Positions 36,597 to 55,280 of a stretch of DNA of 62,858 nt are shown here, piece by piece. The number at the start of each line of letters is the position of its first letter. Position 1 is the stretch's first letter. The stretch lies in the NCBI GenBank assembly GCA_041674705.1, contig JBAYVF010000008.1, forward strand, positions 1-62,858. The letters run 5' to 3'. The notes below the pieces were generated by a model, which was not told the DNA's origin, did no database searches, and worked only from the letters and a program-made list of their open reading frames with translations. This stretch comes from Candidatus Omnitrophota bacterium (GTDB lineage: Bacteria; Omnitrophota; Omnitrophia; Omnitrophales; Aquincolibacteriaceae). Both the position numbers and the translations under genes were made by a program.

Positions 36597-36787
36597 TGGA
36601 TTTCCCTAATCCACGCGCCGCAGTGCTTGCGCGTTGGGCGCAAGCGCAGTCGGCGTAATGGATTTCCCTAATCCACGCGCCGCAGTGCTTGCGCGTTGGG
36701 CGCAAGCGCAGTCGGCATAATGGATTCCCCTAATCCACGCGCCGCAGTGCTTGCGCTGCGCATTGGGCGCAAGCGCAGTCGGCGTAA
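36585..36787 (+). repeat. Tandem repeat: units of 62, 62 and 67 bp plus a terminal 12-mer, each starting with the last codons of G2
   Basis: CAGTCGGC(G/A)TAA at 36585, 36647, 36709 and 36776. Each unit holds hairpins TGGATT..AATCCA and GCTTGCGC..GCGCAAGC. Confidence 0.95.
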
Positions 36788-36988
36788 TTCAGGCCACAGG
36801 CAACAGACTGCAGTTTAAAGCGTTTTCGATCTATCTATATCTTTCAGCCCTGTGCCTCAATGAAAGCTCTCTATTGATCAAACTTGATAGAATCTGCCGC
36901 TTAAAGTTGTCCACTCAAAGCCACGAAATACCCGCGCCCGTTCACCCCTCCAGGCTATAATTTTTAAAATTTATATGTGTCCTATCTC

Positions 36989-37079: not shown

Positions 37080-40000
37080 TTGAGAACCTCGAGTAAAACT
37101 CTCAGGGTCATCAGTTTTTTGACGGCATCCTGCTTTCTGATCACCTCGATTAGCTGGGCCTCTCCGGAAGGCATGGGCGTGTCCCGAGCGATCACAAATC
37201 CCGAGCTTCCTTTCGTCGGCGGGTTCCAAATTCCCGAGCAGTTGGGTTCGGTAAACGAAGTTTACCGCGTTGAGCGGGGAACGGGGAACGGAGAACGCAA
37301 CGACGAAAATGTTTCCCGTTCCCCGTTTGCCGTTTCCCGGTACGACCGCATGGTCGTGCTCATCGAAAACGCCCACGCGAATTACGGCGCGCAGGTCAAG
37401 GTCCGGGAGCTTCTCCGCTACCTGGACAAAACCTACGGCATCAAGACGGTCTTTGTTGAAGGCGCGGCCGAAAAGCTCGATCCTTCCTCGCTCCAATTTT
37501 TTCCTGAAAAAGAAAAGAATCTTAAGCTTGCGGAGTATCTTGCGCAGGAAGGGATCCTGAGCGGGGCGGGGCTCTATCTTGCGGAAGATCCCAAGGGTGT
37601 GGAAGGCCTGCCGCTTGAAGATATAAAACTCTACCGCGCCAATTACGAGGCCCTCAAAAAAGTATTCTCGGCCGGAACTTCAATGGATCGCGGCCTGGAG
37701 ACTATGGAAGCGCGTCTCGGGAAACTTTCCTCCAAAACCCTCTCACCGGAACTCAGGAAAACGCTTGAGGAATGGCAGCGCTTTGAAAAAGGACGGCGGG
37801 AATTTCTGCCTTTTACCGGCCGGCTCGTGGTGCAGGCCAAAGAAGTCCTTCATCTGGACATGCAGAATGCCTACAGCCAGCTCGAGTGGCCTCAGATGGT
37901 CCGATTGCTCGCGCTCCAGAAGATGGAAAAAAAGATCGATCCCGCCAAAGTCCGCGAGGAACGAACGCGCCTTGTGCGTTTTCTAAAAGAGAAGCGTGTT
38001 TCCGAGGGAACGATCCTGTCGCTTGAGCAAGCATTTGGTGAGACTCCGGCGGACCCGAAGCTGGATCTCCGTGCTGTTTTCGAATCCTTCGTGACGGATG
38101 CACGGGCCAAAGGGCTGCTTCTCAAGGATTGGCCTTCTTTTACGGCTTATGCCGCACACCGCACGCTGCAGCAGGAGCTCGATGCCCCTGCCCTTTTTAA
38201 GGAGATCGGGCGCCTCTTTGCCGGGATCACGGATTCACTTGCGAAAACGGATCAAGAAAAAGCCCTCGTTCGGCTTCATCGCGATCTCACTCTTTTCTCG
38301 AAACTGCTTCATCTTGAATTGTCGAGGGATGAGTGCTCGGAACTATTGGCTCGCAAAATATCGCCCAAAAGATTGACGGATCAACTTAATCTGGCGCAAC
38401 GCGCAACGGCCAACGCGCAACGATTGACGAATTTCAAGACTGGCCCGTCATCCCCGAACGTTTTAATCGGGGATCAAGGTCTGGATTCCCGCTTTCGCGG
38501 GAATGACATGGAGGCGATCCATGCGAATGCTCTCGCTTTCTATTCCTTCGCCTCTCAGCGTGAAAAGGTTTTTTATGACAAGATCGATCGCGCGATGCGT
38601 GAGAAGGGGATCACGAAAGCGGTTGTCGTGACCGGCGGTTTTCATACGGAAGGCATGAGCCAGATCCTTCGCGAAAAAGGGGCGGGTTTTGCGGTCGTGA
38701 CGCCGCATATCTCGGAAACTTCCGATGCCCGTCTTTATAAAGATGCGATGCTTGGCAGGCGTAATGCTGTCATTGCGAGTCGCGAAGACGGCGAAGCAAT
38801 CTCGGCGATGCAACATTCAGATCCCAGTCAGTTCGCAGGAGCTTCTTTTCTCGATGCCGCCCAGCCCCAGCAATCTGCAGGCGTCGTGACCGCCCTCCGG
38901 GGCAGTTCCTATCGCTCCGACATCGCGGCCGGCCTTACCCAGATCACCGGCATCCATGATCCACAGCGAATCGCTGCCGTGATGAGCGTGAAACAAACTT
39001 CAGACCGCAAGTCGCAAGAAGTAGTAGGAATCTCGGATCTTCGGTCTTCATCCTCCGATCTTCAGTCTGGAAAAATTCGCGCCGAGGTGAGGAAAGATAA
39101 TGAGAAGGACAAAAAACCTGGTTCCTCGGACAAGGTCAAAAACTTCATAAAAAGCAAAATAACTCCCGATAAATTTTCCATTATCGATGATAATCGGAAC
39201 CACGCCGCCAAGAACATTCTGCAAGTCCTGGCCCGGGGGCAATTGCCCGTGGTGTTCCCGTACCAGATCCAGCTCGACCTAACTCAATTTTGTCCTTTTT
39301 GGGATGTCATCCAGCGGACGGGGAAGGGGTTCAAAGATTGTATCCATTGTGCCTTTCCGAGCAAGACAAGACGCCAGGTCGACCCCGCCATTCTGACCAA
39401 GATTCTGAAGAATTTCGAAGCGCACGGGGGCAAATCCATTTTTGTCACCGGCGGCGGTGAGCCCGGTGTCTACGAGTCCTGGCATGAATTTTTTAGTTTT
39501 TTGGCAGGTTCTCGATTAGGCCTGACGATGAACACCAATGGCCTGTTCGTTAAAAAACTGTTCAAGGAAGATCCCGATATTCTCCGGAAGGTTTTTTCGG
39601 AGGAAAAAGACCCCAGCGTGATCAGTATTTCGATCCATGGGGACTATGCGTATAAGTTGGTAACACAACTGAATGATATGCGTCAAAAGTTAGGGCTGAA
39701 CATCGTGATTCGTAACACCTATCTTGTTCATCCCGACACGCCCATTTCGGAACTCACCGAATTTCTCGAAAAAAGCCAGGGATCAGGGGCGGACATGGTT
39801 TCTTTTAAGCCGGAGCACGTTTTAAAAGGGGATCAGCGGGTCTTTTCCACGAATGAGGTGGCCTACCGCTTTATTCAGAATCTTCTTTACCAGCAAGCGG
39901 CTAAGGACAAGGGGATGCTCGAGCTGGCTCACCCCTACGATCTGGTGATCACGGCCATGAGGCCAAATCGCCTGAAGAACGATTTTGAATCCGTCCGTAC

Positions 40001-43000
40001 GATCTATCAGCGGCAGGTGGATACGGATCACGATCCTCTCTGCTTTGGGCCCTTGTGCAATTTGTACCTCAATACGGAGCTTCTTCTCGGTATGTGCTGT
40101 GATACTAAGGACAAAGGGATCGGGGGAACTCCGGCAGAGGTTTTTGCGGATTCTTTGTTCGTTCAGGATAAGCCGCAGGATTACTTTTTGGCCGCCATGC
40201 TCGGCATGATCAAGTTGAACCCCAAACACTGCATTGTGGGTTGTGGTTTTATGGAGCCCAATTTCACTTATCCCATGACGCTCGGGTTGAAATATTTAAC
40301 TGATACATTGAAGGCGTTAAGAACGGCATGGCGCAGAGGTGAAATAACCGAGGAACATATTAAGGAGCACTTGAAACAAGCATTCATTGAAAATGTTAAA
40401 GAGGCCGGTGATGCCAGCAACGAAAACTCCGCGCGGCGTGCCGAAGTGCGTTCCGCACCTCTTCTTCGAAGTCTGGAGGGATCCGATGCGAGAGGCCAAG
40501 CCTTGGCACAGATCGCCCAATATCTTGTGAGCCTTTTGAATTCTCAACCCCGATCCGAGGCGCGGGGAACAGTTTCAGAAGAAGTGCGGGCTTTTGATGC
40601 GAACGTGCAAAATGAAATAGAAAAGATTGAACGTAAGCTTCCTTCGGCCGATCTTGTGGTTCTCCTGCCTTTCTTTAATGAAATCCCGGAAGTAGCGGCT
40701 TTACCCGGAACAAAAGGTCAGCCGATCGATGTCCGGGAGTTGGTAAAAACAATCGGACGATCGTTGCCGGATGTCTTGAAACAGTATGGGCTGAAGCATG
40801 CTCTGGTTCTCTGTGTCGGCGAGACGAAGGGGAAAGGGGCAATGGACTCGCTTGAGGCGCTCACGCAAGGAATTCCCAAAGACAACGAATCTGTGAAGTT
40901 CGAAGTGTACGGAAAAGAAGGGGAATTTACGGGTAAAGGGCTGTCCGGAAAGAAATGGGCGACGAGGCTCGGGATGAAAGTCGCCGAGCGGTTGGGGGCC
41001 CACTTTGTTCTGATCGACAGCGATATGACGGTCGATCAAAATTGGCTTTCCCGATTCGTGGAGCCGGTCTTAGCGGGCCGCGTGGATTATGTCTCGCCCC
41101 ACTATGCTCGGTATTACAGCAAGGATGATATTTCGATCATTGATCATCTTGTGTTCCCGCTCTTTTCGTCCCTGTTTGGAGCACCGGTGAGAATGCCTAA
41201 TGCGGGTGAACTTGTCGCATCCAAAGACCTGATCGAAGGATATTTAAACGATGACGCCATCTGGACCGCGGCCTGGCCGTACGAAGAACAGTTTGCAGTT
41301 CGCGCGGTGGCGCAGGGGAAAAAGACTGCCAATGTCTGGATGGATGAGAAGATTCATAAGAAAGCTCCGATCGAAGGAAATTTATCGCCTTATTTGAAAG
41401 CCGCATTCGACGTTTTCGCACAGCAGATGACCGATCATCCGGATTGGTGGCGGTCCGCGAAAGAAACTAAAACAAGGGCGCCCCTCGAAGATAGCACGCT
41501 GCCGTTGGATCAAATGAATCGTCCCGCAAACGAACTGTATGGCGATCGGAGTTCTCAAATGGGTGGCCAGAACGGTATCGATCGATCCGCGTGGATCAAG
41601 ATCTTTAAAGATGAATATTCAGCGGTGAAAAACTGGTATCGGGACAACTTTCCAGAAACCGGCTCCGTTTTAGAGGGGCTGTTAAAGTCCTCAGATGAAG
41701 AATTCAGATTTTCTTCCAGGGATTGGGCGCAATTCGTCATGCAATTCATGCAGGGCTATAGGATCGCCAATGCTGATAGCCGTGCGGTGTATTTAAGCGC
41801 CTTCATTCCGGCTTTCCGGGCCCGCGTGGCCAGCTTCATCGGGGAGACGGAAAAACTGACGCTTCGCCAGGCCGAACAACAGCTTCGTGCCCAAGCTCAG
41901 GATTTTACTGATGCGAAGATGGTTGTTCTAGAGAATCAGCGAATGAGGATGAGGTACGATGACATCTTTTCTGGAGCTCTCGTAGCAAATGATTTTACCC
42001 TCGAAAGGCTTTTTGCCAATAAAGATCACTATCACGACGGGAAGCCGTTAAGCGGTGTTGCGGCAGCATTGTTATTCATGGCGACAAAACAAAAAGATTC
42101 GAAGCTGTTGACGAACAATATCCACGATCTCGTGAGGGAACTTACGGAAAGTCTCCGGCTCAAGTCAGGTGAAGTTTTCTGGACGCCTCAAACGGATCTT
42201 CATACGGCGATCGCGACCCCGAACAAAAAATTCCTGCCGGAACTTCCGGCCCAGACGTTTGACCCTGCGACGGTGGAAAAAATCCGGAAAACGGTCGCTT
42301 CGGCCGGTTCCTTTGATATCCGTTGGCAGGGGATCACGATGGGAGACAATGGCGTCATGATCCTTCAGGGTTTTATTTCAAACCCTGAGATCATCAAATT
42401 GCGGGCCGCGTTGGCTCAAGATTTCCCGAAGTCGGTATTTCCGGATGTTTTTATCCCGAACATTATCCACATGACTTTGGGGCGCTTTCGTGCGCCCATT
42501 GGCGCTGACCGGTACCGGAAACTTCTGGAGAAGGTCGCTGAACGTCGGAATCTTGAATTCGGGACATCTCATGTTGAAAATCTGAACTATGTTCGCGCCA
42601 CCCTCAAATCAGGGCAACAGATCGGTGAGGAATCGTACGTGCTCCTTCACGAGTTGCGACTGTCGACATCCCCTCGCTCCGAGATGCGGGTTGACGCTAG
42701 ATTTTCCGAAGGCAAGTTTTCCTCGGTTGCAATTACCGGTGCGAGTGGGGATCTTGGCGCGATGCTGGGACGTTATGTCGATTCCAAGGGCCATTTTGTC
42801 AGGGCCATGGTGCGGTCTGACAAAGGTAAACAGAAATATGAGGACAGGGCTTTGCGCGGTCTTCCGAACGACAGGTTTCTCCTGTTGGATATTTTGGACC
42901 GTGAAAAAATGAAAAGCATTATGGCGGAAAGTTCAGTGTTCTATCATCTGGCCGCTCTTGTGGGGCTCGGTAAAGACTCCAAAAGCTTCGCAGAGAATTT

Positions 43001-46000
43001 CAAGGTAAATGGCCTGGCCGCGGTCGGTCTGGTAAAGCTTGCGGAAGAGAATAACCCCGGCGTCCGTTTTATTTTTGCCTCAACTCAACGTGTTTGCGGG
43101 ATCGAGCAACTGCCGGCGGTCAACCGGTGGATTGACGGGGTCCTGCAGATGATCGAAGAAAATGACGCTCTTTTTCACGAAAAGAATTACGAGGTGGCGA
43201 TCGATCGGCTGATGGAGATTATTCTGCAAAAGCAGCCATTTCCCGAAGATGTTTATCCCTACGAACTGGGCAAGCTTCTGGTGGAACGGTATCTTGAAAA
43301 AAGCAGGTTGAAGCAGTTCATCTCCGTTCGCATCTCCAGTTTGTACGGCCCGGGAAATCTTTCGGGACGTAAAGTTCAGCGCATGATCGAAGCTCGCCTG
43401 AAGGGACAGACCATCACGGAACAGCGAGAAACGCGAGACTATATTAATACGCAGGACGCAGTTGAAATCATGTATCAATTGGGTGTGCGCGAAAAACTTC
43501 CCGTCGAGCATGTGATTGACCTGGCTTCCGGTGAAGAAGTTTCTGGTGAGGATATCTGGAAGATCATCGAGAGACACACACCAGAAGCGGACGGTAAAAT
43601 CGAGTGGAAGGGCGAGCCGGTTCCTGCGAACGTCCAATCCAATGAAATTGGCAGGAATATCTTGGGGAGGGATTTCGCCCACATCGAGACAGGGGTTCGG
43701 AACCAGATCGACGAAATTCGGCGCCGTCTTCCTTCCGCAGTAAAAAGACAAGGCCTCGTGCTGGTCATAGATGCTGGCGGCACATCGACCCGGATGGGTG
43801 TGTGGGACGGAGAAAAACTTACAGATCAGATCAAGGTCCCAACGATTAATTATGTCTCAGCTGAAGCTCAGGGCAAACCGATCGATCAAATGCAAGAGAT
43901 CTGGCTTGAAGCCCTTGCTCAGAAAATCCGAGAATACCGGGCACGGTACCCCCATATGCAAAGCATTTCAATGGGGTTCGCAGGACCTGTGGGCGAGGGA
44001 GGAGACCTTACCGAATCGGCGGTGATCTGGGGCCATGACAGGCATAAGATTTCTAATCCGGAGCTCCAGAAAAAGTGGGGATTGCCTGTGAAAGTCGTAA
44101 ACGATCTTACAGCTGCAGTCTACCGTTATGGGCGGTCCAAAAAATTCTCCGGAATGCGAACGATCGCTTTAATCACAGTCAGTAGCGGTATTGGATCCAA
44201 ATTGTTTGACGTAGTTCATGGGGAAGTGGTCATTGACCGCCAAGGCCGCGCCGGGGAGATTGGCCATACGATTGTTGATTACGCCGGAAACGCAATCTCG
44301 GGAGAGGGACTAAAGGGTGAATTGAACGCCTATGCCTCAGGCCGCGGTCTTTCGAATTTGGCAAAACGTTTGGTTGAGCAAAAGAAATTCAAGGTGCTTT
44401 ACGAAAGATCTTTCTTGAAAATGGATATCGAAAAGGTCGGCCAAAAGATTGAGAGCATCGATCGTGACCTTTTAACACGCTTGCTTGTGGAAGCGATCAA
44501 TAAAAAAGACGATTTCTCTATGCAAGTTATGAAAATCTCGATCACGTATTTGGTTCGTGTTGTCGGGCCTTTTATCTTGCAAAATGCGCCAGATGTCATT
44601 GTGTGGATGGGGAGCATCGCCGAGCATCTGGGACCTGTTTATCTGGACGAGGTGATCGATCAGCTTCTTAGTAAGGGGTTATATGGTTATACACGGGACG
44701 ATCTGAAAAAGATGTTCGCGATGGGAGAAAATGACGATGAGAATGGCCTTCGCGGAGCAGGGCTGATGGTATTTGACAAGCACGGTGAGGCGACGGAGAA
44801 GGTAGTCCATAATCCGGGATATGTCAGGGATAGCGTGGACCTTCGCGGACACGAGATGATCGAAGCCGTGGCTCCGAATGATTTGCAGCAGCGAAATTAT
44901 TTTACGGAGGGCGCTTTTGATGTCGAGAATCCCATCCTTGCTGATGTGCTCGAAAAACGTAACGTAATTTTTGTGGTAGAAAAGTCCGTCGCTGATAAGG
45001 TCCTTCAGCCTTTAAAGCAGTACATTCGACATTATCGTCTGGAAAAGAATATTAAAGGCGAGATCCAAGTCCTGGATGGCGGGGAAAAGATTAAAAGTGA
45101 CGAGCAGGTAAAAAATTTAACTGATTATGCGCAGGACCAAAAACTGGATCGTAACGGGATTTTCGTGGTCGTGGGTGGTGGGGCCGTTATGGATATGGTC
45201 GGGATGGTTGCTAACCAATTCCGGCGCGGGGTTCGATATGTTCGGATTCCCACGACGCTTTTGGCGCAGGTCGATGCCGCGGTCGGAGTCAAAGTCGGTA
45301 TAGATTATCGAACTGCTAAAAACTTTCTCGGGGCCTTTTATCCACCTTTTGCGACGATCACCGATACTCGTTTTCTTGAAACCCTGCCCGAGCGTCAGAT
45401 CCAAGGAGGCATTGCAGAGATCATCAAGGTAGCCCTTATTTCAAATCCTTCGCTTTTTGAAATTTTGGAAAAATACGGAACGAATTTTATCCGTGATATG
45501 CCAAAGGACGAGGAGCAGGCTTTTATCAAGGACGCCGCGGCTGAGCTTCTGAAGCATCTTCAAATGGATTTTTTCGAGCATAATCTGATGCGGCATGTCG
45601 ATTTTGGGCACGTTCTCGCTCACAAATTCGAATCGATGACGAACTATGAACTTTCTCACGGGGAAGCGGTCGCCATTGATATTCTCATGTCTTCTTACAT
45701 TGCCCGCGAACGCGGTCTATTGAGCGGCCAGGCTTTTCAGCGGATTTTAGCTTTGCATGGGAAGTTGAAGCTTCCATTTTATCACCCTGCCTTAAATCCA
45801 AACCTTGCGTGGGAAGGGCTCGAAGAGGCCAAGGCGCACAAAGGCGGGCGCCTCATGATGGTAGTCCCTATCGAAATTGGCCAGACTACTTTTATAGATT
45901 CCTTGCGACGCGATGAGTTGGATGCAGCGCTCGACTTTCTGCGACGACACCAGGAACAAGACGATGAAGAGCTGATGATCCATGAAATTAATGAAGATCA

Positions 46001-49000
46001 TCCGCCTGTGGAATTAAGGTATCTTCAGCAGTATTTGGAATCTCTTCCCTCAGACCCAATTTATTATCTAACAGAAATTAGTAATGTTCTCAACGATCTT
46101 TTGGGGCCATCCGTTCAAATGATCATCAACGTTGCAACGAACCAGCATTTGGATCCTGGAACGCGAGCCAAAGCTGCAGAAATGCTCGCAAAGTACGGTC
46201 TTCATACGGATCGTAATGGGAAAGCAATAAGCCTGAGCTCAATGGCTTCGCCGAACCTAAAAAATATAAAATTCAGGCGGCATGGCGAATCTTTTGTTCC
46301 AGACGTGCCAATTAAAGTGCAAGCCGATGAAGCTGTCGCGCAGCAGCTCCTAGATAAAGAGGCATTTGTTTTTGATATTGATGGGACGCTCATTTCTCGG
46401 AGGCTGGATCCTGAGATCGTCGAATTAATCATCGAGCTTCTTAAGCGAAACAAGACGGTTGTTTTTGCAACAGTGAGAGGGCTTACATTGGAAGATTATT
46501 ACGCTCATATCCAAAAAGGAGAAGGGCTCGGCATTCTCAAGAATATTTTTGAGCACCCTGATTTTAAGCCGGAAATGCTTTCCAAGATCTTTGCTTATAC
46601 GGATGTGGCAAGTTACAAATATGCTTTTCGCATGAAACCCGGTCATTTTCGTTCTGGATGGTTCAATGTCGAACCTTTTCCGGATAAAAAATTTACCGCT
46701 AAATATCGGCAAGCCAAGATTTTTTCGGAAGAAGATGCCATTCGTTTGAAAGAGATTAAAACATCGCTTTTAGAGATTGAGAACCGTTTTTCCAAAGAAT
46801 ACGGTTTTGCTAATCCTGATCAGGATTATGAGGGTTTTGTGCGTGGCGCTAAGATTCAGGAAGATGAAAAAGCGGTTCTTTATTTTCCACGGACAAAGCA
46901 GGGCGAAGTTGAGAATTGGAAGCTGAGGAGCATGCTTCAAAAGCTCAGGGATCGATTGGCGGAAAAATCTCCTAAGGAATTCGTCAAAGGGCTGACCTTC
47001 CGCGTTGTTTGGCGCAAGGGGATAGTTATTGCGAAGCAGAATAATCGGAAGAATGAAGCGCTTTTGGATCTTGAGGCGATGGGTTTTTCCAGGGACAAGC
47101 TTTGTTTTTTTGGGGATGACGTCGTAGCGGACGGGCTTGACCGTTTGGTTGCCGAGATTCCTGGGCTTATGGTTATATCAACTGCAGCGCCGATTCCCGG
47201 AGAGATTTCAATGTTTCAAATTGAAACCGAAACTTCGAAAAGCGGACCTGATCGAGTTAAGCGTATTATGAAAGCCTATCTCAACCTCGTTCAGCGGGGA
47301 ATGATCCGTTCCGAAGTTCGTCTTACCGATTCGGAAGTGAAGGAGTTTCTGGCCAACTGGGTTGTTGAGGGGCATCGGTTCAATCCTGATGAGCTCCAGC
47401 CGGTGAGCCGGGCTGTTTTTCTAAGTGAGGCGGAGAGCCTTGGAAGCGCCAATCCTGAATGGGTCCTGAGAAGTATCTTGGGGAAAACTTCCAGGGAAAA
47501 AATTTCTGCTGAAGAAGTTGAGCTTTTTCTTTACCAAGGGAAGGTGAGACCAGTCTCAATTCTTTACAAGCCGCGCATCCGGCCTGGGGATATCCAGCAT
47601 TCGAACCGGTTTAAAAAAGGTGTTCCTGTCACGTCAAGCAATCACCCGATCTCTCCGGTTATCGCGGAGAGCCTAGCTGCGGCACTTGTTGCGAAGATGC
47701 GCTCCCGTATCGATTTGAGCGAACATGCTAGAAAAGGTCTCTGTGTCCTCGGGAAATATACGGGAAGCTTGGTCCTCGGTAGTTTGGTAGCAAATCTTTT
47801 GAAACTGCCTTTTGTCACTCTTACGAAACGGTCTTATGCCTTTGATCTTCCCGCGAATAAAGAGATGGTTAAAATACCGGAGCCACATATGCCTCCAGAG
47901 AATCCGGAATATTTTTCCTACATGACTTTGCCTCACAACAGTCGTGTTCTTTTTGTCGACGATGAGATTACTTCAGGGGAGGTGGTGAAAAATACGTCTC
48001 AGGCGCTAAAGCAGAATCTGAACGCAGACATGGTGGGAGTTGGCGTGGCACTTGAATCTTCTCCGGCTGCGCGTCTGCGTCTTGAGGAGATGAATCTGCC
48101 ATATACCTCACTCGATCAGCTCAACGAAGGGGATCTGGCAGCTGCTGATAAAAAAAATAGTCCGACTCTTGTTCCTTTCCGAGAAGCGATACCCCTTGCA
48201 CTTCGAACTGAAGTGAAAAAATCGGAGAAATCATCCAGGGATATTAACGTGGAGTTCCTCAAAATGAATAATGGGGCCGTTTTTGCGGACCATCCATTTC
48301 GGGGAATGACACTCGGCTTAGATCCAGATCTCTCAGACCAGGTTGGAGAAAGGATTGCGGGAGAATTGGAAGAACAACTAGGCTCCCTGAGCGCCCTTCG
48401 GAAAAAATACTATGAAAGGGGAAGGACCTTATTCATGGTTGGCACGACCCCCAGCGGGATACTTGGGGCTTTGCCGGCCTCTCGTGTTACGCGACTTCCT
48501 CTTATCGGTGCTATGAACCGTCCCGAACCCAAGGATTATGATCAGCTCAATATGTCAGATGTGGTCAACTACATCGGGTTGGACGGATATGCTTACTCGA
48601 TGTTCGGCTTGACGGCTGGAGACGGGATTCTTCTCGTGACGGGGGAGCTCACGGATGGAGAAGAACAGATTCGGATCATTCAATCACTGAAACAAAAAGG
48701 GATTGATGTTCTCGGAGTTGTTTCCTTGATCGAAAATACACGGTACAGCGGGCGGGAAAGGATCAGGCAAAACGCCGGCGTCTTTGTAACTTCGCTTCAA
48801 CCCTACCAGGCCAAAGAAAATATTCCAGAAGTGAACGTGACAGATCGATCTTGGGCGGCTCTTAAGTATGCCGTCATGCTCTTAGAAGACGAGATCAAAA
48901 AAATCAACCCCGAGGCGTACTTGGATTCCATTCGTGTGCTTCCCAGTTCGTTAACCGGAAATTTCATGATCTCGGCAAGCGATCTTGATGAAGCTTATAT

Positions 49001-52000
49001 TTGGGTTGACGGGTTAAGTCAATTTCAGCTCGAGCAATTACAGCCGGTTTTTAATCAATGGCTCGAAAACGGCGGTTTTAAGTTTGACGGTCATTCGAAT
49101 AAGGCCCCACTCTTACTATCATTATGGCATCGTGAGTCGAATGAAAAAATATATGAACTTCATCATTTTCCGCACATCGAAATTTACCGCGGTGGGCAAT
49201 TTTATTCACCCGAGGCGCTGGTTAAAAGCGGAGTGTTGCCCACGCGAAAAGTGCAATCGAAAAATCTAGCGCGATTAAAATGGTTTTATTCTTTAAATGA
49301 AATTGGTGTGGAGTTTCTTAAGGACTTGCTTGTGCTCGCAGTCAAATCAGGCAAATGGCCGCAAGGAAGAATCAAGGTTTTGAGCGATCTTATCGACAAC
49401 CTGGCGAAAGAACGGTTGAGCGCAGCTGCGCTTGAATGTCTGCGATGGATCGACCGAGAATATCTAGCCGGGACAAGGGACCTAGCCATTCCACAGGAAA
49501 AATCGGAAGTTTTTCAGGCTGCGCTTCAGGAATTGGTACAAAAAGGCATTTTTCGAATCTACGGAAACAAGATCTTATTAGTGACGCGTCATGGAACTGT
49601 TGTCTATTCGGATCGTTTTTGGAAAGATCAAATGCGTATCTTGGGCCATGATGATTTTTTGAAGTTCGTTGAAGCTCGGTGGCGAATGTCAACGCCGGAA
49701 TATCGGATGATGGCTGAACAGTATTCAGCCGCAATCATAAAAAAATGGGATCGTGAAACGCCAAGACTTCTTCCGGAATTAGTGATGCGGTCATGGATCG
49801 ATCGTATGGCCCCTTTAACAGATGAAGAAAAAGAACGCTGGTTTGAATCCTTTGAGTGTGATGACGCTTTGATCTTTGCAGCCGCTATTGAGGCGGGAGA
49901 GCGGAGGGAGGTGGAGCTTAAGGAATTTTTGAAGCGAAAGGTCCTCGCAATATTAAATCTTCCTGCAGAAAAGAACGGCTCATTACACTCCTATTCGGGT
50001 CATTTGCAAGTGCAGCTTCATTTATCCCTCAACATGATGTTTCGATGGATGCGTCAGCACAAAGGTGTGATCGATGACGACATCCTCTTCATTATGGACG
50101 CTATAATCAATGGTCCTAAAGATATTCGCATCCCGTCAATGATTTTACAGGACCTGACGGTCTATTTTGCAGGAGTTTACGAACAAATTATGGACAATGG
50201 ATTAAAACAACGCGTATATCGTTTCATTCGAGACGAAAAAGGGAGTTTTAAATACCGTTCCAACCAGTTGGGAAGTAAAGCGTTTAAAACGATTATCGAG
50301 AAATCTCCGGAGGACGCTGCTTTGGTATCGTCGCAGTCTTTTCGGATGATCGCGCCTGAGGCAGTTCAGAATGAAGAACGGAAAAAAATATTTCATGCGA
50401 TTGAACGAAAAAGAAAAAATGGCCAGCCCATCGAATTTTTAGCTTCCGATTGGGATGGTTCTTTGGTTGCGTTTTCTTCCGGGCAAGAAAGCAGGCTGTC
50501 GCCCGAGATGGCATTCTGGCTCAACTGGCTTATGTCGAAAGGTAAGCAAATAGTGATCACTACGGCAGCTTCCTATTCGCGATTCTACCGCCAAACAATG
50601 GATCCTAGTTCCAATCCGGTCCCGCTTGTTAAATCCAAAAATTTCAATGTTTTCAATGACACGGTTGCGTATTTAAATGATCGGCCGGTTTCATTACGCG
50701 AGTTTACGCCATCTTTTTTAAAGCAGTTACATGCAGTTATGGAAAAAATGAAATGGCATTTTCTCGATGACGGCAGGCCTCCTCAGCTGGCTTTTTGGCA
50801 CGAAACGCTCTCACGTGAAGAAGCGGTCCGGGAATCGGAGGCGATCAAAAGCCTGCTGCCGCAAGGAAATAATTTTTATTTAACGTTGTCGAAATTTCGA
50901 AAAAACGAATGGATCATCAAGCTTTATTACGAAACCAAAGAACTTATTTATCAAACTCCGCTGGCCAATGGTGAAAAAATTCAGCCAGGTCGTTCTCTTG
51001 TCATGGGAGACGATGCAGGACCGATGGGCAATGATGAGCCGCTTTTTCGAGGCGCGGCAGATGGCCTTAAGATCGCTTTGGGCGAAGAAAATATCTCAGG
51101 TGCTATGACCATGCAAACCAAAAATAAGGAAGGCGCTTTATTGGCCATCGAAGCGTGGGTCGCGTCGATTTTAATTGATGAAGCGTCTCAAGAATTGCTT
51201 CCTTTGGGAGAGAAACTTCAAGAGTTAGTAGTGATGATTGATGGAACGCCGGGTCTCGGCCCTGAAGTCTCAGAGCGCATGAAGAAAAACATCGGTGGTT
51301 TGCTAGCAAGAGTCAGGAGTGAAATGCGCGCCGATGAATCGGGCGAATTAACAGAAGAAGATTTGATCAGAAAAGCGGTAATTGAAAACCCTAACGCGGT
51401 TCTTCCCTCACCCGTCTATTTTCTGGAACTACATCCGACGAATCAGTGTAACCTTCGCTGCAAAGATTGTATCGCGGGTAAACGTGATCATGCGTTTGTT
51501 TTTCCATTCGACCAATTAAAAAATGTCGGTACCCTCAAGCCCTCTGAAGTATTGGTGATCGGAGGCGGAGAGCCGACCATCTATCGGGATGGTCAGCATA
51601 ACTTCAACGACTACATTTTAAAACTTGCCGCTGTTGCGCCGCAGGCAAATATTGGATTGGGTACGAACGGTGTTTATGTGCCGAAAGGGGATTGGACAAA
51701 GAAAATCAAATGGGTCAGCATTTCTTTGCATGGGACCAGTCAAGATCGGTTCCTTGGTTTTACCGGACGAGATAAATTCGACCAGGTTTGGCACAATATT
51801 TTTCAAGAATACGCGCTTAAAAGTCCCATTGAAGAAATTAAGATTTCTTTCGTATATACGAAGGAGAACTTAAAAGAGGTTCTGCCATTATTAGAGAAAA
51901 TTCGGAGTGCATGGACAGCCGTTGAGGCAGAGTTAGCGAAAAAAGGCATTAAGAAACGCTTCTGGTTTTATTTGCAGGCTGAAGCCGTTGACCATGGCCC

Positions 52001-55000
52001 GGATAGGCCCTTCGCTATTTTAAACCTTGATGATGAGTCCAAACGTATGTGGGCGGATGCGGTGGAGAAAATGCGTATTGAGAATCCGCCGTTATGGGCA
52101 TTTATTCAAGAGCATTGTCCCTGGATTTCCGGTGGACCGTTGAAGGAACGCAAGTCTGAACCTGCGAAACTTTGCTATATGGTAACTAATTATCTCCTTA
52201 TTGCCGCCAGCGGGTTAATTTACCCGTGCTGTGTAATGCCGGCATCGGCTCCCCGAACGAATCTCGGGCACATTACACAATCTTTGGAAGAGCTTCTTCG
52301 TAGACGTATGAAATTCATGTTCGCGCTACCTAAACGCTGTCGCATAGGTTGTCATATAGGCAATACGCTATCCGGGCAGACTGTAAAAAGACTATTATTG
52401 GAACCGGCCAATGCGGCTAACCCGGATTTGAAAATTAAAAACGCTCAAGCGACGAATGGAGTACAAGTCTCCGCGACTATTTCTTCAAACACCAAACAAG
52501 TAGGTCAGATCCAGCCCACCGTTAATGAACGAGAGAATCGATCTGAAATGCGCGCCAATGCTGTTGACTTAGCGCAGCAGAATAAAGATCTGATCGATCG
52601 CTTATTTTATGCGAAAGGTGTGCTGGCTGCCGAAGGTGCGAGGGTGGAGATGGCGAAGCGCGGGTTGATACTTTTAGAGCAATTTCCGATCGAAGATAAA
52701 CAAGTTATGGGTGCTGTTTTTAGGATGCGAGTTCGGGAAGTTCTGGGATCACGGATTTTATTGGCTGTGAAAGTTCCTAGCGTTGAGCGTGCGGCGTATT
52801 ATTCTTACGCGTTTGGAAATGTTGATTTGCTTGTATTACCAGCTGGCCCAAAGCCGGTTGAGCAACGGATGGCTAATGCCGTGCTGGATGAGTCAATGGT
52901 AAAACGATTGCCACCCTCCGTCTTTCCGAAAATATTTCGATATCTTGATTTTGGGCAGAGACTGAATTTGCAGACATTGAACTTTATTTTAGATTACCCT
53001 TGGAATGCTTCCAGTCCGGATGTTTATGAGCGAGAACTTGCTCAACTCCGCAAATACAGAAATGAAGCACCCCTGGGGCGCTTAATAACGAATAGAGAGA
53101 TGTTCCCAACGGATCGCGACGGAAATTTATACGCTCTTCATATTACAAGTGGCAAGTCAGCTATTCTTACATCTGCGAATAAAGAGATGCATACTACGCC
53201 CCATGCAGTTGGACCCGTTATTTATGCAACACCGCTTATCAGGAATGGTTTGAAACCGCTTTCTGAATCAGCAAAACCGGTCAGCCTGGCTGAAGATGTA
53301 TGGAAAAATCTGAGCGCTCGCCGGGAGATCGCTCATGATGAAAACATTGACAACTATGGGCTCGTGATCCGCGTTCCCTATCAAAGCGCTAGCGCAAATC
53401 GATTGACGAATTGGGTCGACTATTTTGGCTTCGGGCGCGCCGAACTCGAGACCTATTATCGTTTTCGAGCTAGGCCGGAGTGGACACCCGTTATGGATAG
53501 CATTATCCAGAAAGAGGTTGCCAGACAATATAACAGTTCCCATGAATTTCTTAAGAAAATATTGGGTAGCCGAAGCGTGGATGTCCAGCGAGATTGGCCG
53601 GCTTTCTGGGGCGCATTTAAAGAAGCTAGGGGCAATATGCCGATCCTCAATCACGCGTTTTTTGAAATCTTAAAATCTTATATTTTATTATTTCAAAACG
53701 ATCAGCAGTCGTTTGCAATGCGCGATGAGGGAAATATGAATGTGGGGCTTCAATACAAAGTGCTTTTTGAGGTCGATCCGAATCAGCGGATGCATTTCAG
53801 TACCCAACGTTTTACGCCCGAGATAGATGCTCTTCTGATCGCGCTCGCTAAGCATATCCGTTCCTTTTCTTCCGACCATTTTAAGGCATATGTCATGGAA
53901 CGCTTCCCGATGTTTATTGCCATTAAATTCTTAGAAGGTGAAACCCTTTCAGGTCCAGTCGATCAATTTGACGACTTGGCTGTGCGGCTTCCGAATATCG
54001 CTGGTTTATTACATTATAATGTTGCGTACGATAAGCTTTTAGAAACCTCATCGGATTTGAAATATGAGTATCAGCTTGTTTTTTCGCAGGTTTTGCGAGA
54101 CATTTTTAGAAAACGACGTATTTTTGTCCCGATTTTTGGGATGATGGTTCCGACGGGCGAATTAGGCGTGTGGCAGATGGGCGATGAAGATATTAAAATT
54201 TTTGATTTGTATTTTGATTTGCCCAAGCAAATAAGCCCATTAACTATTGGTAAGTCGTTGGATATTCATATCGCACGAAATAAGACGATTCGGGATGAAG
54301 AACGAGGATTAAGCTACAAGAGACCGGTGCGCGACGAATCTACTGCAGCTCATTCGGAGGAGAGTGATAAGCGGGATCGAAAAGAACATGGAAAACGTTC
54401 CGAAATACGAACTGTTACAGAATTATTGACGGACCGATATGCCTCGGTGGTGGGGCTGGAAGTGGAGGTCGGGCAACTGGATGAGGCGAGGCTTTCTTCT
54501 GTGACGCTGACGGCGCTTGTGCATGGCGGGATCTTTAACATTGGAATTTCTTCTGCGAAGATCGAAGCTGCGATTCGTGAAGTCCAGGCCGCGATGGCGG
54601 GGGATCTTTGGAGCGGAAATCTGAAGCGACTTCAAAAGGTGATGGCGTCCCGTCCGGATTCGATTTTTAAACCGTCGGATGCCCAGGGGGGGCTGATCGT
54701 TCCTCTTAAAGGTTTACCCGCCTCAGACCAGATCGCTCGCGATGTGTTTGCGATGATCACGAATACGGGCGTTCGGAAAACATATGTGTTGGAAGACGTA
54801 TCGGAGGCAGCTTGGAGATCTTTGCTCGAGCCCTTTGCGGCGACGAAAGATCTAAGAGGCGAATCGGTGCTTGATCGCTTGAAGATCGTTCCTGCAAAAA
54901 AAGGCGACCTGATGAAAGTAGTTTCGAGCTATGGCACGGGCATGGCACATCTTCTTGAGATGGATCCCCAGGATATTGTGGTGCTTTTTGAAGGGGCTGG

Positions 55001-55280
55001 GGCGGTTCCCGCCAGGGAGCGGATGGCTCAGACCATGATCGTCTCGGATCTTGGGGGTCGAGAGAATCTTGGACCGGCGCGCGATTACCTTGCGATGTGG
55101 GCGTCCATGATGAATGTCCGGATGGATAACGATGCCTGGACGCTTCTTAACCAAAAAGTTGCGAACGCTCTGAAAAAGAAGGACGGATTTTTTAAAATGG
55201 ATCGCGATGCCCTGGCAGGCCTTGCCGAGATCTTGAGCCAGATCTTTGTGCAGGAGCGGGTGACCTCAACGGCAGCGTAG
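37080..55280 (+). CDS. Giant multi-enzyme protein G3 (6,066 aa)
   Basis: Uninterrupted 18.2-kb ORF with TTG start and AAGGAG. Signal-like N-terminus, shared N-terminal domain, more than 12 enzyme-like domains separated by R[SA]ExR. Ends ..QERVTSTAA*. Confidence 0.93.
   Translation: [6066 protein letters not shown]
37275..37339. repeat. Heptamer inverted repeat, in frame in the G3 N-terminus
   Basis: CGGGGAA CGGGGAA CGGAGAA ... TTTCCCG TTCCCCG TTTGCCG TTTCCCG. Confidence 0.7.
37350..38760 (+). other. Conserved N-terminal domain of giant proteins (G3 copy)
   Basis: IENAH (H at 37374), FVEGAAE, QREKVF, VTGGFH (38634-38645); colinear with the G2 domain. Confidence 0.8.
38447..38507. repeat. 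GTCAT..ATGAC two-hairpin miniature element, in frame in G3
   Basis: GTCATCCCCGAACGTTTTAATCGGGGATC-AAGGTC-TGGATTCCCGCTTTCGCGGGAATGAC. Confidence 0.85.
39180..40350 (+). other. Radical SAM domain 1 with C-x15-C-x2-C and a SPASM/twitch-like tail
   Basis: Cys at 39291, 39339 and 39348; VTGGGEP, MNTNG; C-terminal LCF...GMCCD...HCIVGC. Confidence 0.75.
40600..41950 (+). other. GT-A glycosyltransferase, mannosyl-/glucosylglycerate synthase-like
   Basis: [14 protein letters not shown], LIDSD (DxD), [36 protein letters not shown], EKIHK. Confidence 0.7.
41990..42660 (+). other. 2H phosphoesterase-like domain
   Basis: Two His motifs, LHTAI (42201) and IHMTL (42468), with typical spacing. Confidence 0.65.
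42700..43740 (+). other. NAD-dependent epimerase/dehydratase (extended SDR) domain
   Basis: [20 protein letters not shown], YELGK (YxxxK), [9 protein letters not shown], RDYI. Confidence 0.85.
43750..44780 (+). other. ROK-family sugar/cyclitol kinase domain
   Basis: [44 protein letters not shown]. Confidence 0.85.
44830..45960 (+). other. Sugar-phosphate cyclase (DHQS superfamily; sedoheptulose-7-P cyclase/EEVS-like)
   Basis: [63 protein letters not shown] (45597), HGEAVAID. Confidence 0.85.
46340..47290 (+). other. HAD-superfamily phosphatase domain 1
   Basis: FDIDGT (46374), FATVRG, K in RKNEAL, FFGDD...GLD. Confidence 0.75.
47620..48820 (+). other. Two tandem type I phosphoribosyltransferase-like domains
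   Basis: [11 protein letters not shown] (47955) in the first; degenerate [11 protein letters not shown] in the second. Separated by RTEVK at 48204. Confidence 0.65.
50420..51150 (+). other. HAD-superfamily phosphatase domain 2
   Basis: ASDWDGS (50448), VITTAA, LVMGDD..PMGND. Confidence 0.7.
51380..52400 (+). other. Radical SAM domain 2 (canonical CxxxCxxC) with a SPASM/twitch-like tail
   Basis: [13 protein letters not shown] (51447-51470), GGGEPTI, LGTNG, LCY...IYPCC...RCRIGC. Confidence 0.85.

Follow-up and report, generated by a model that had tools for sequence, protein, structure and literature searches.

A giant modular ORF of an Omnitrophota bacterium with a probable carbasugar/cyclitol cassette around a distinct sugar phosphate cyclase

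The stretch of DNA analysed here (hereafter the window) comprises 62,858 nucleotides (nt) of contig JBAYVF010000008.1 from the Candidatus Omnitrophota bacterium assembly GCA_041674705.1. At positions 37080..55280 it contains a single uninterrupted open reading frame (ORF), here termed G3, which encodes 6,066 amino acids (aa) from a TTG start with the ribosome-binding site AAAGGAG 8 nt upstream; G3 and all its features described below lie on the + strand. Pfam and NCBIfam profile searches combined with motif inspection recovered, with agreeing motif coordinates, the domain order that a first-pass annotation had read from the letters of the sequence, namely radical SAM (S-adenosylmethionine), GT-A glycosyltransferase, 2H phosphoesterase, short-chain dehydrogenase/reductase (SDR), ROK kinase, sugar phosphate cyclase, HAD phosphatase, two phosphoribosyltransferases (PRTases), an SDxD motif, a second HAD and a second radical SAM domain. 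We interpret G3 as a leader-bearing modular giant of the Omnitrophota, punctuated by RSExR peptides, whose core (approximately aa 1866-4756) would be a carbasugar/cyclitol cassette, and assign this reading a probability of roughly 0.62.

The first part of this core, module M3, lies behind an RSEMR junction found in a motif scan (42675..42689) and strings together SDR, ROK, cyclase and HAD domains. The SDR (42726..43724; match at aa 1883-2134, E 2.5e-20) is of the extended epimerase/dehydratase type, with the GxxGxxG (TGASGDLG) and YxxxK (YELGK) motifs intact. It is followed by a ROK-type sugar kinase (43758..44819; aa 2229-2564, E 7e-21; 75.5 bits on PF00480 with a cut-off of 22.9), which conserves DAGGT and, in VNDLT, the catalytic ND. 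The zinc motif of the ROK family, GHx9-11CxCGxxGCxE, is absent from this kinase, where the stretch GHTIVDYAGNAISGEGLKGELNAYASG is devoid of cysteine, and it is likewise absent from three orthologues. The cyclase occupies 44829..45965, and the module closes with HAD 1, a HAD-IIB-type phosphatase (46347..47306; DIDGT at aa 3099), for which a sequence/profile search of the PDB returned no match. The nucleophile Asp of HAD 1 (aa 3097-3103; DIDGT in G3 and in its orthologue P0122) is replaced in the orthologues L005 and L006, which read GLDDV and ALDDA at this point and retain the rest of the module; the step catalyzed by HAD 1 is thus apparently not universally needed.

The cyclase (aa 2606-2962, E 3e-36 and 9e-25) scores 124 bits on PF01761 (cut-off 24.2) and 87.7 bits on PF24621 (cut-off 27.6), has no cysteine, and when aligned to ValA, DDGS (desmethyl-4-deoxygadusol synthase) and 3-dehydroquinate synthase (DHQS) is seen to keep the NAD motif GGGxxxDxxG (as GGGAVMDMVG) and the Glu/His/His metal ligands (in AEIIK, DFGH and SHGEA). 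Among solved structures its best match is ValA, an EEVS (a synthase of 2-epi-5-epi-valiolone), at 197 bits, followed by DDGS at 181, DHQS at no more than 154 and 2-deoxy-scyllo-inosose synthase (DOIS) at 102. ValA (4P53) and DDGS (5TPR) are about 40% identical to it over about 345 residues and share its NAD motif and metal ligands; the Asp of xDFGH is common to ValA, and that of AVxID to both. Four alignment positions, namely the xDFGH position, the residue after the metal His, the final residue of AVxI(D/G) and the Lys356 position of DHQS, distinguish the classes of this superfamily: they read N, H, G and K/R in DHQS; D, H, G and T in EboD-type sequences; D, P, D and N/R/H in EEVS-like sequences; A, P, D and R in DDGS; and D, H, D and M/V/I/L in the clade of G3. 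In G3 itself (VDFGH..AHKFE, HGEAVAID) an Asp stands in the column of DHQS Asn268 (LNxGH) and a Met in that of Lys356, in what we take to be the Aspergillus nidulans numbering. The first-pass description of this domain as EEVS-like rather than AroB, with a second His retained, is exact, in that the alignment combines an Asp as in EEVS with a His as in DHQS and EboD. Of the three active-site positions of ValA that we compared two differ: Asp281 is kept, the Pro after the metal His is His in G3, and His360 is Met. A 14-site active-site fingerprint of ValA is described (PMC4426668). This D-H-D signature, as we call it, is common to the G3 clade and, as a mosaic of features of other classes, defines by its residues a cyclase subfamily of its own.

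In a tree of 101 cyclase domains G3 falls in a 20-row clade with maximal support (SH-aLRT 100), nearly all of whose members are Omnitrophota giants or ROK-cyclase fusions (P0002 and P0003), with some free-standing or short sequences besides. It shares an unresolved group with the large ValA/DDGS assemblage (support 95), apart from the EboD-type (100) and DHQS (99) sequences, and ValA is placed in a different group from G3 (99). The fully supported clade of G3 is thus separate from ValA and DDGS, the nearest characterised group. The position expected from the first-pass annotation thus holds as regards separation from DHQS and proximity to ValA/DDGS, and fails as regards membership of the ValA/DDGS clade. 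On the basis of the tree, the D-H-D cyclases are a fully supported branch of their own, adjoining the sedoheptulose-7-phosphate cyclases. An exhaustive search of 1.8 billion representatives gave as the closest relatives (44-68% identity) domains within other very long proteins, and as the next closest ROK-cyclase fusion proteins of about 731 aa.

Profile comparisons place the domain outside the shikimate pathway. Its best NCBIfam model, NF004852, gives 293.7 bits, under the cut-off of 333, and the same model gives 525-587 bits for P0065, P0068 and P0076, sequences of Dyadobacter, Hymenobacter and a deltaproteobacterial metagenome-assembled genome (MAG) that bear the EboD-type signature. On TIGR01357 (aroB) it reaches 242.2 bits, under the equivalog cut-off of 305, and the genome's own AroB, whose gene lies on contig C9 within an aroC-aroK-aroB operon, scores 352.3. 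As its score is below the aroB cut-off and a full-scoring AroB lies in an aro operon elsewhere, the G3 cyclase is unlikely to be a shikimate enzyme, in agreement with the earlier rejection of an AroB identity. EboD, long mis-annotated as DHQS (PMC5133447; PMC12904256), resembles the G3 cyclase in the NF004852 match, in the xDFGH..AHK.E motif and in the presence of both His residues; unlike it, EboD-type sequences have AIG for AID and Thr for Met and fall in a separate clade, and EboD is accompanied by the ebo partners (UbiA, TatD-like, xylose-isomerase-like) that are missing from G3. EboD had been predicted from its position in the tree to use sedoheptulose-7-phosphate (PMC5133447), and was later found to cyclise mannose-6-phosphate to a C6 cyclitol (PMC12904256). 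As this neighbour acts on mannose-6-phosphate despite the tree-based prediction, a C6 or C7 substrate cannot be read for G3 from tree position.

The arrangement of the SDR, ROK and cyclase domains shows an operon as their source. The first-pass annotation had noted their fusion without an RSExR peptide between them and proposed capture from an operon; our motif scan found no RSExR between the three in G3, and a search for free-standing operons in that order recovered one, L021. Its three genes (SDR, ROK and cyclase) align end to end with aa 1883-2210, 2227-2563 and 2584-2955 of G3 at 27%, 27% and 41% identity, and its cyclase bears the D-H-D signature, yet falls just outside the 20-row clade. 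ROK-cyclase fusions in a single gene also exist (P0002, P0003 and L001). L021 and these fusions have the same enzymes as G3, with P0002 and P0003 inside the clade; they differ in being separate genes with 1.4-1.9% cysteine, and in having no leader, no RSExR and no PRTase or M4b partner (see below). The L001 fusion lies beside GT2 and GH4 genes. In L002 and L022, the cyclases of which belong to the EEVS-like signature class, cyclase and ROK genes occur amid genes for a methyltransferase, GT1, cupin, NTP-transferase, two SDRs, DegT aminotransferase, GH4 and GFO oxidoreductase. A gene of GH4, a family of NAD-dependent glycosidases, recurs next to free-standing ROK/cyclase fusions in two unrelated contigs (L001 6586-7800 and L002 11337-12545).

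Behind M3 lies module M4, which holds the remainder of the core. PRTase 1 (47646..48050) has a canonical phosphoribosyl pyrophosphate (PRPP) loop, VDDEITSG, at aa 3626, and its best Pfam match is PRTase_2 (PF15609), by a small margin over the general family model. In PRTase 2 (48438..48821) the loop, which reads VTGELTDG at aa 3853, is both conserved and non-canonical, and a search for free-standing homologues of this tandem found none. The next unit, M4b (48837..50279; aa 3920-4400), is predicted from a structure model (pLDDT 76) to be a small alpha/beta unit followed by a helical repeat. Its PSS..SDxD motif is invariant in 6 sequences and reads SDLD at aa 3967 in G3, exactly at nt 48978, where the first-pass annotation had seen a nucleotidyltransferase (NTase)-like motif. 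The motif thus stands, and the NTase identity is a tentative one, with the motif and a non-significant best Foldseek match to Cid1 (E 0.22, probability 0.82, 126 columns) behind it, no match reaching E 0.001; a PDB profile search with M4b returned nothing. HAD 2 (50427..51314; DWDGS at aa 4457, GDDAG) completes the module.

The whole of aa 1866-4756 forms one colinear BLAST block in P0122 (52% identity), P0123/L006 (44%) and L005 (56%), and in P0126, P0128 and L009 its halves occur in the opposite order (aa 1866-3352, SDR-ROK-cyclase-HAD; aa 3408 onward, PRTases, M4b, HAD and radical SAM). Identity between orthologues is highest in the cyclase cores (88-96%), the ROK core (80-93%) and PRTase 2 (76%). 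In other giants the cyclase has different partners, namely a zinc-dependent alcohol dehydrogenase (Zn-ADH; P0124), or GT2, M4b and a CofD-like domain (P0131), and M4b is its most faithful partner across giants. The CofD-like domain, of the 2-phospho-L-lactate transferase family, follows GT2, M4b and cyclase at aa 1350-1616 of P0131/L008; the co-occurrence of SDxD and CofD-like domains hints that they might form a nucleotidyl-activation/phospho-transfer pair acting on a cyclitol phosphate. The cassette was detected in 7 of 301 Omnitrophota species genomes, always inside ORFs of 3,336-81,822 aa, and in only 2 of about 20 genomes of the same genus. On G241 contig C2 and G291 contig C1, from distant Omnitrophota families, it lies in open frames of 52,518 and 81,822 aa. 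Loci found with clade-specific peptide patterns were all five from 'Candidatus Omnitrophota' MAGs, bar one Porphyrobacter outlier; the latter (L010) has GNAT fused to the cyclase, within a polyketide/NRPS-like cluster, and was set aside as uninformative. From its distribution and arrangement, the cassette is a rare, mobile and swappable cargo.

The boundaries of the modules are marked by a recurrent peptide. G3 contains 8 copies of R-[SA]-E-x-R, as against 0.24 expected from shuffled sequences, and the two preceding giant ORFs, G1 and G2, contain 11 and 6; besides the junction before M3, the sites in G3 start at nt 39078, 40437, 40551, 47307, 51315, 52539 and 54396. The breakpoints of homology between giants all coincide with RSExR sites. 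As the codons of these sites vary synonymously, RSExR is a motif at the level of the peptide, and a DNA repeat, which we had considered, was rejected. A literature search on RSEVR, RSEMR and RAEVR gave only irrelevant matches. RSExR may be a site of cutting that releases the modules.

The modules flanking the cassette differ in the strength of their assignments. M1 (39078..40550) has a radical SAM domain (aa 753-854) with CX15CX2C, at nt 39291, instead of CX3CX2C, a GGGEP motif and a Cys-rich C-terminal part with 9 cysteines; it scores 28.7 bits against a Pfam cut-off of 29.5, and a PDB sequence/profile search found no relative. M2 (40551..42674) combines a GT-A-like region, where Glycos_transf_2 matches weakly (17 bits, E 0.006) and a DSD motif lies at nt 41013, with a 2H phosphoesterase domain at aa 1720-1835, which at 32 bits exceeds the cut-off of 27 and in which the HxT of IHMTL is intact and LHTAI has Ala for Ser/Thr. 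Downstream of the cassette, M5 (51315..52538) is a radical SAM domain with a SPASM extension (aa 4786-5076), both above cut-off (33.9 bits against 29.5 and 22.8 against 21.5), with canonical CX3CX2C (CNLRCKDC), GGGEP and 9 cysteines; a PDB search gave generic matches only (GDGT-MAS, MoaA, viperin), with no link to BtrN, the cyclitol radical SAM dehydrogenase. M6 (52539..54395; 619 aa, no Cys) is conserved in P0122 and P0123, where it follows the cassette; a PDB sequence/profile search with it gave nothing better than E 0.67. The C-terminal M7 (54396..55277; 294 aa, no Cys) has no domain assigned, and neither M6 nor M7 has a paralogue in the same genome.

At its N-terminus G3 has a n-region of charge +3 (R2, K6, R9), a hydrophobic helix at aa 10-28 (37107..37163), the only such segment in a Kyte-Doolittle scan of the protein, and then SWA/SP and a net acidic stretch. 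This bears out the export-type N-terminus of the first-pass annotation: with positive charges before and negative charges after a single hydrophobic segment, the predicted topology is N-in/C-out, and these features mark the leader as either a signal peptide of the Sec type or a signal anchor with N-in orientation. A Tat leader was rejected, as the twin-arginine motif is absent from G3 and its paralogues. The leader opens the 'head' domain M0 (37080..39077; aa 1-666), the post-leader part of which is about 550 aa long and has invariant AH, EG, FY..R and GGFH motifs. A search with its predicted structure (pLDDT 75.5) gave no match at E 0.001 or better; weak ones at E 0.7-1.5 include EreC, BcR135 and HopBA1, which we take to be of an EreA/ChaN/TIKI-like group. 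At least nine ORFs of the same genome, G2 among them, open with a G3-type leader, its hydrophobic feature kept, and head domain. They lie on contigs C2, C5, C6, C7, C8, C16, C26, C34 and C54, range from 905 to 11,517 aa in their open frames, and occupy roughly a tenth of the 1.78-Mb genome. The head of G3 has a specific in-frame insert around nt 38447 (window 38400-38480; aa ~440-470), for example LDSRFRGNDM. Three paralogous giants (L012, L017 and L014) also have in-frame head inserts (alignment columns 205-232), such as YGVRSKEYGEKK..AVRRTPSA; these inserts are lineage-specific, other paralogues being without them, and resemble palindromic repeat elements that are translated and tolerated as part of the coding sequence.

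The three giants follow one another on the + strand of the window: G1 (more than 2,475 aa), built of HEAT repeats; G2 (9,316 aa), which has SecA-DEAD domains along with numerous transmembrane (TM) segments; and G3, after which come nadE, argS, miaA and hflX. Between G2 and G3 the intergenic DNA contains a 62-bp tandem repeat (36585-36787) and, ahead of G3, an AT-rich promoter-like stretch, tataatttttaaaatttatatg, at about 36955-36985. Giant multi-enzyme proteins of the Omnitrophota have been described (10.1101/2023.11.21.568195; 10.64898/2026.06.07.730766), and G3 resembles them in its N-terminal signal peptide/TM segment, and its neighbour G2 in having SecA-DEAD domains. A sugar-metabolism module set of radical SAM, ROK and HAD domains is listed in the second of these preprints (10.64898/2026.06.07.730766). 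The focus of both is on proteins of 10-30 kaa, and G3 at 6 kaa is below this range; DHQS-like and cyclitol modules go unmentioned in both texts, as do RSExR junctions.

A further feature of G3 is its scarcity of cysteine, with only 8 in the 5,167 residues outside the two radical SAM modules. Cyclase domains in proteins of at least 1,500 aa have a median of 0.13% Cys, as opposed to 1.33% in shorter or free-standing homologues; the proteins of the L021 operon have 1.4-1.9%, and housekeeping proteins of this genome 0.6-1.2%. Among relatives of G3, P0122 (4,266 aa) has a single Cys and P0123 (5,619 aa; L006 6032-21061) none, and P0126 and P0128, in which the radical SAM modules are duplicated, have about 1%. 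In G3 cysteines are kept only where Fe-S clusters need them. A purge that spares Fe-S ligands is expected of chains that cross or work past the cytoplasmic membrane, and this composition leans toward passage of the chain outside the cytoplasm. The first-pass annotation had pointed to a clash between an export-type N-terminus and cytoplasmic cofactors (Fe-S, NAD, ATP, PRPP), and the clash is real. The puzzle that enzymes of cytoplasmic type are predicted to lie outside the cell has been discussed for other metabolic modules (10.1101/2023.11.21.568195; 10.64898/2026.06.07.730766).

Taken together, these observations suggest how the cassette might work. Domain identities, intact motifs, operon origin, shuffling of modules, rarity, the separate clade of the cyclase and the purge of cysteine are direct results; the order of reactions, the C6 or C7 nature of the substrate, the role of M4, and the exit of the chain from the cytoplasm with possible cutting at RSExR are what we infer. 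M3 corresponds to a three-gene operon of SDR, ROK and NAD/metal-dependent cyclase, copied in fused form with an added HAD phosphatase; its cyclase would convert a sugar phosphate to a keto-cyclitol. The ROK kinase would either supply hexose-6-phosphate or re-phosphorylate the cyclitol, the SDR would reduce or epimerise the ketone, and HAD 1 would remove a phosphate. M4, with its two PRTases, SDxD/helical domain and HAD 2, travels with M3 and most likely activates the cyclitol phosphate or couples it to a group derived from PRPP or a nucleotide. Lineage-specific add-ons would be the two radical SAM/SPASM modules, the GT-A-like/2H module and M6/M7. The product is probably a carbasugar, and not demonstrably one of the C7 type.

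Several points weigh against this interpretation. The GT-A and M1 radical SAM calls fall under Pfam cut-offs, the HAD 1 nucleophile is gone in two orthologues, M4b is an NTase by motif and a non-significant fold match (E 0.22) only, and PRTase 2, whose PRPP loop is without the acidic pair, may be non-catalytic. The mosaic D-H-D signature, read from the alignment, is such that no characterised activity is transferable to the cyclase, and the tree was sampled from the best matches of G3, with DOIS, EVS (2-epi-valiolone synthase) and amino-DHQS references absent. Enzymes depending on Fe-S, NAD, ATP, PRPP and SAM cannot work in the periplasm, which argues against simple export.

The alternatives differ chiefly in what they make of the cyclase and of the condition of the domains. 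The clusters for validamycin and acarbose encode an aminotransferase, a sugar-1-phosphate (GlgC-type) nucleotidyltransferase and a pseudo-glycosyltransferase beside cyclase, kinase and phosphatase, and the first-pass annotation saw in G3 a complete-looking C7-cyclitol pathway of the valienamine/acarbose/validamycin type. In such a pathway an EEVS would act on sedoheptulose-7-phosphate, ROK would phosphorylate the C7 cyclitol as AcbM/ValC do, and epimerase, glycosyltransferase and phosphatase would follow to yield a pseudo-sugar. The ranking of ValA among solved structures, the two shared Asp residues (VDFGH, AVxID), the proximity of ValA and DDGS in the tree, and the presence of kinase, SDR, HAD-IIB and a GT-A-like region all speak for it, as does the Zn-ADH in one relative (P0124), an enzyme class that we presume to be that of the cyclitol reductases/dehydrogenases ValN and AcbL. 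This claim is not supported as stated: the cyclase lies outside the ValA/DDGS clade, with His for the Pro of both and Met for ValA His360. Unlike ValA and DDGS, the G3 cyclase is fused to a ROK kinase and embedded in giant ORFs. G3 contains no match to PLP aminotransferase, NTP_transferase or GT20/GT5 at E<=1 (about 1,900 residues, in the helical part of M4b, M6 and M7, being without assignment), and neither an aminotransferase nor a GlgC-type nucleotidyltransferase nor an OtsA-like pseudo-glycosyltransferase was detected. Moreover, EboD, with the same Asp, uses a hexose phosphate (PMC12904256), and a ROK domain upstream of the cyclase fits supply of hexose-6-phosphate equally. We thus regard a complete C7 pathway as unlikely. 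That the cyclase is instead a second DHQS serving aromatic amino acid synthesis receives hardly any credence from us: the best NCBIfam models do bear the name 3-dehydroquinate synthase, and 12 of 14 DHQS active-site positions are kept in our alignment, in what we assume to be the DHQS numbering, but both model scores lie under their cut-offs, the better model fits EboD-type sequences far more closely, the genome has its own full-scoring AroB, the equivalents of Asn268 and Lys356 are Asp and Met, and the tree splits the clade from DHQS with 99% support. Also very improbable is that the enzyme-like domains are decayed scaffolds in a structural or adhesive giant, a view to which the divergence of some domains (the best PDB match of the SDR is at E 8e-6, and HAD 1 has none), the off-consensus loop of PRTase 2 and first 2H motif, and the loss of the HAD 1 nucleophile in two orthologues might lend themselves. 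The first-pass annotation had itself entertained catalytically dead domains; in G3, however, the SDR, ROK, cyclase and PRTase 1 domains, the two HADs and the two radical SAMs all have their catalytic motifs intact, active-site stretches are the most conserved windows, with up to 96% identity between orthologues, and cysteines have been retained at Fe-S ligands only.

With regard to location, the main competitor to passage out of the cytoplasm is that the N-terminal helix merely tethers the chain or its head to the inner membrane, with the modules remaining in the cytoplasm of their own cell as an assembly line or as a cut 'operon in one ORF'. This would suit the need of every module for Fe-S/SAM, NAD, ATP or PRPP, as well as the derivation of protein-sized modules, bounded by a synonymously varied peptide motif, from a normal operon, and cytoplasmic-face or mis-predicted topologies are considered in the preprints (10.64898/2026.06.07.730766; 10.1101/2023.11.21.568195). 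It is opposed by the predicted N-in/C-out topology from charges positive before and net negative after the helix, by the lack of a second hydrophobic segment to stop transfer, and by a roughly ten-fold cysteine purge relative to free-standing homologues and housekeeping proteins, which purely cytoplasmic enzymes would not need. We consider tethering a tenable minority option, at somewhat worse than even odds. The purge together with the need for cytoplasmic cofactors leads us to keep both delivery and tethering open, with some weight for action in another cell. MARTX-type toxins are long secreted Cys-poor chains with swappable enzyme cargos at linkers that are cut after delivery. They serve here as an analogy, for which no sequence relation was looked for; unlike them G3 carries biosynthetic cargos, has no cysteine-protease domain, and its cleavage is predicted only. 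In its most far-reaching form, the delivery idea would make G3 an exported, cysteine-purged polyprotein, the cargos of which would be freed at RSExR, so that the new cyclase together with kinase, reductase, PRTases and radical SAM enzymes would build a carbasugar or a carbocyclic nucleotide-like antimetabolite in the host or prey cytoplasm from the victim's sugar phosphates, PRPP, NAD and SAM; as a whole we deem this a long shot.

Within the preferred reading of G3 as a modular giant with a carbasugar/cyclitol cassette, what is new is the D-H-D cyclase clade, its history from operon to cassette, and its linkage to the PRTase/M4b module. In the sugar phosphate cyclase superfamily the assay of mis-annotated 'DHQS' branches has repeatedly given new chemistry (EEVS, DDGS, EVS and, as the latest case, EboD). 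The D-H-D clade is another such branch, and comes with a residue signature, a fused kinase, both operon and giant contexts, and a didomain to express. At 6 kaa, G3 also offers a compact test case for whether the giants act whole, cut or outside the cell, with free-standing counterparts available for comparison, and the roughly ten-fold cysteine purge can be measured as a mark of passage beyond the cytoplasm. Should it be true that such cargos work in another cell, they would represent a new means by which episymbiotic or predatory bacteria manipulate their partners.

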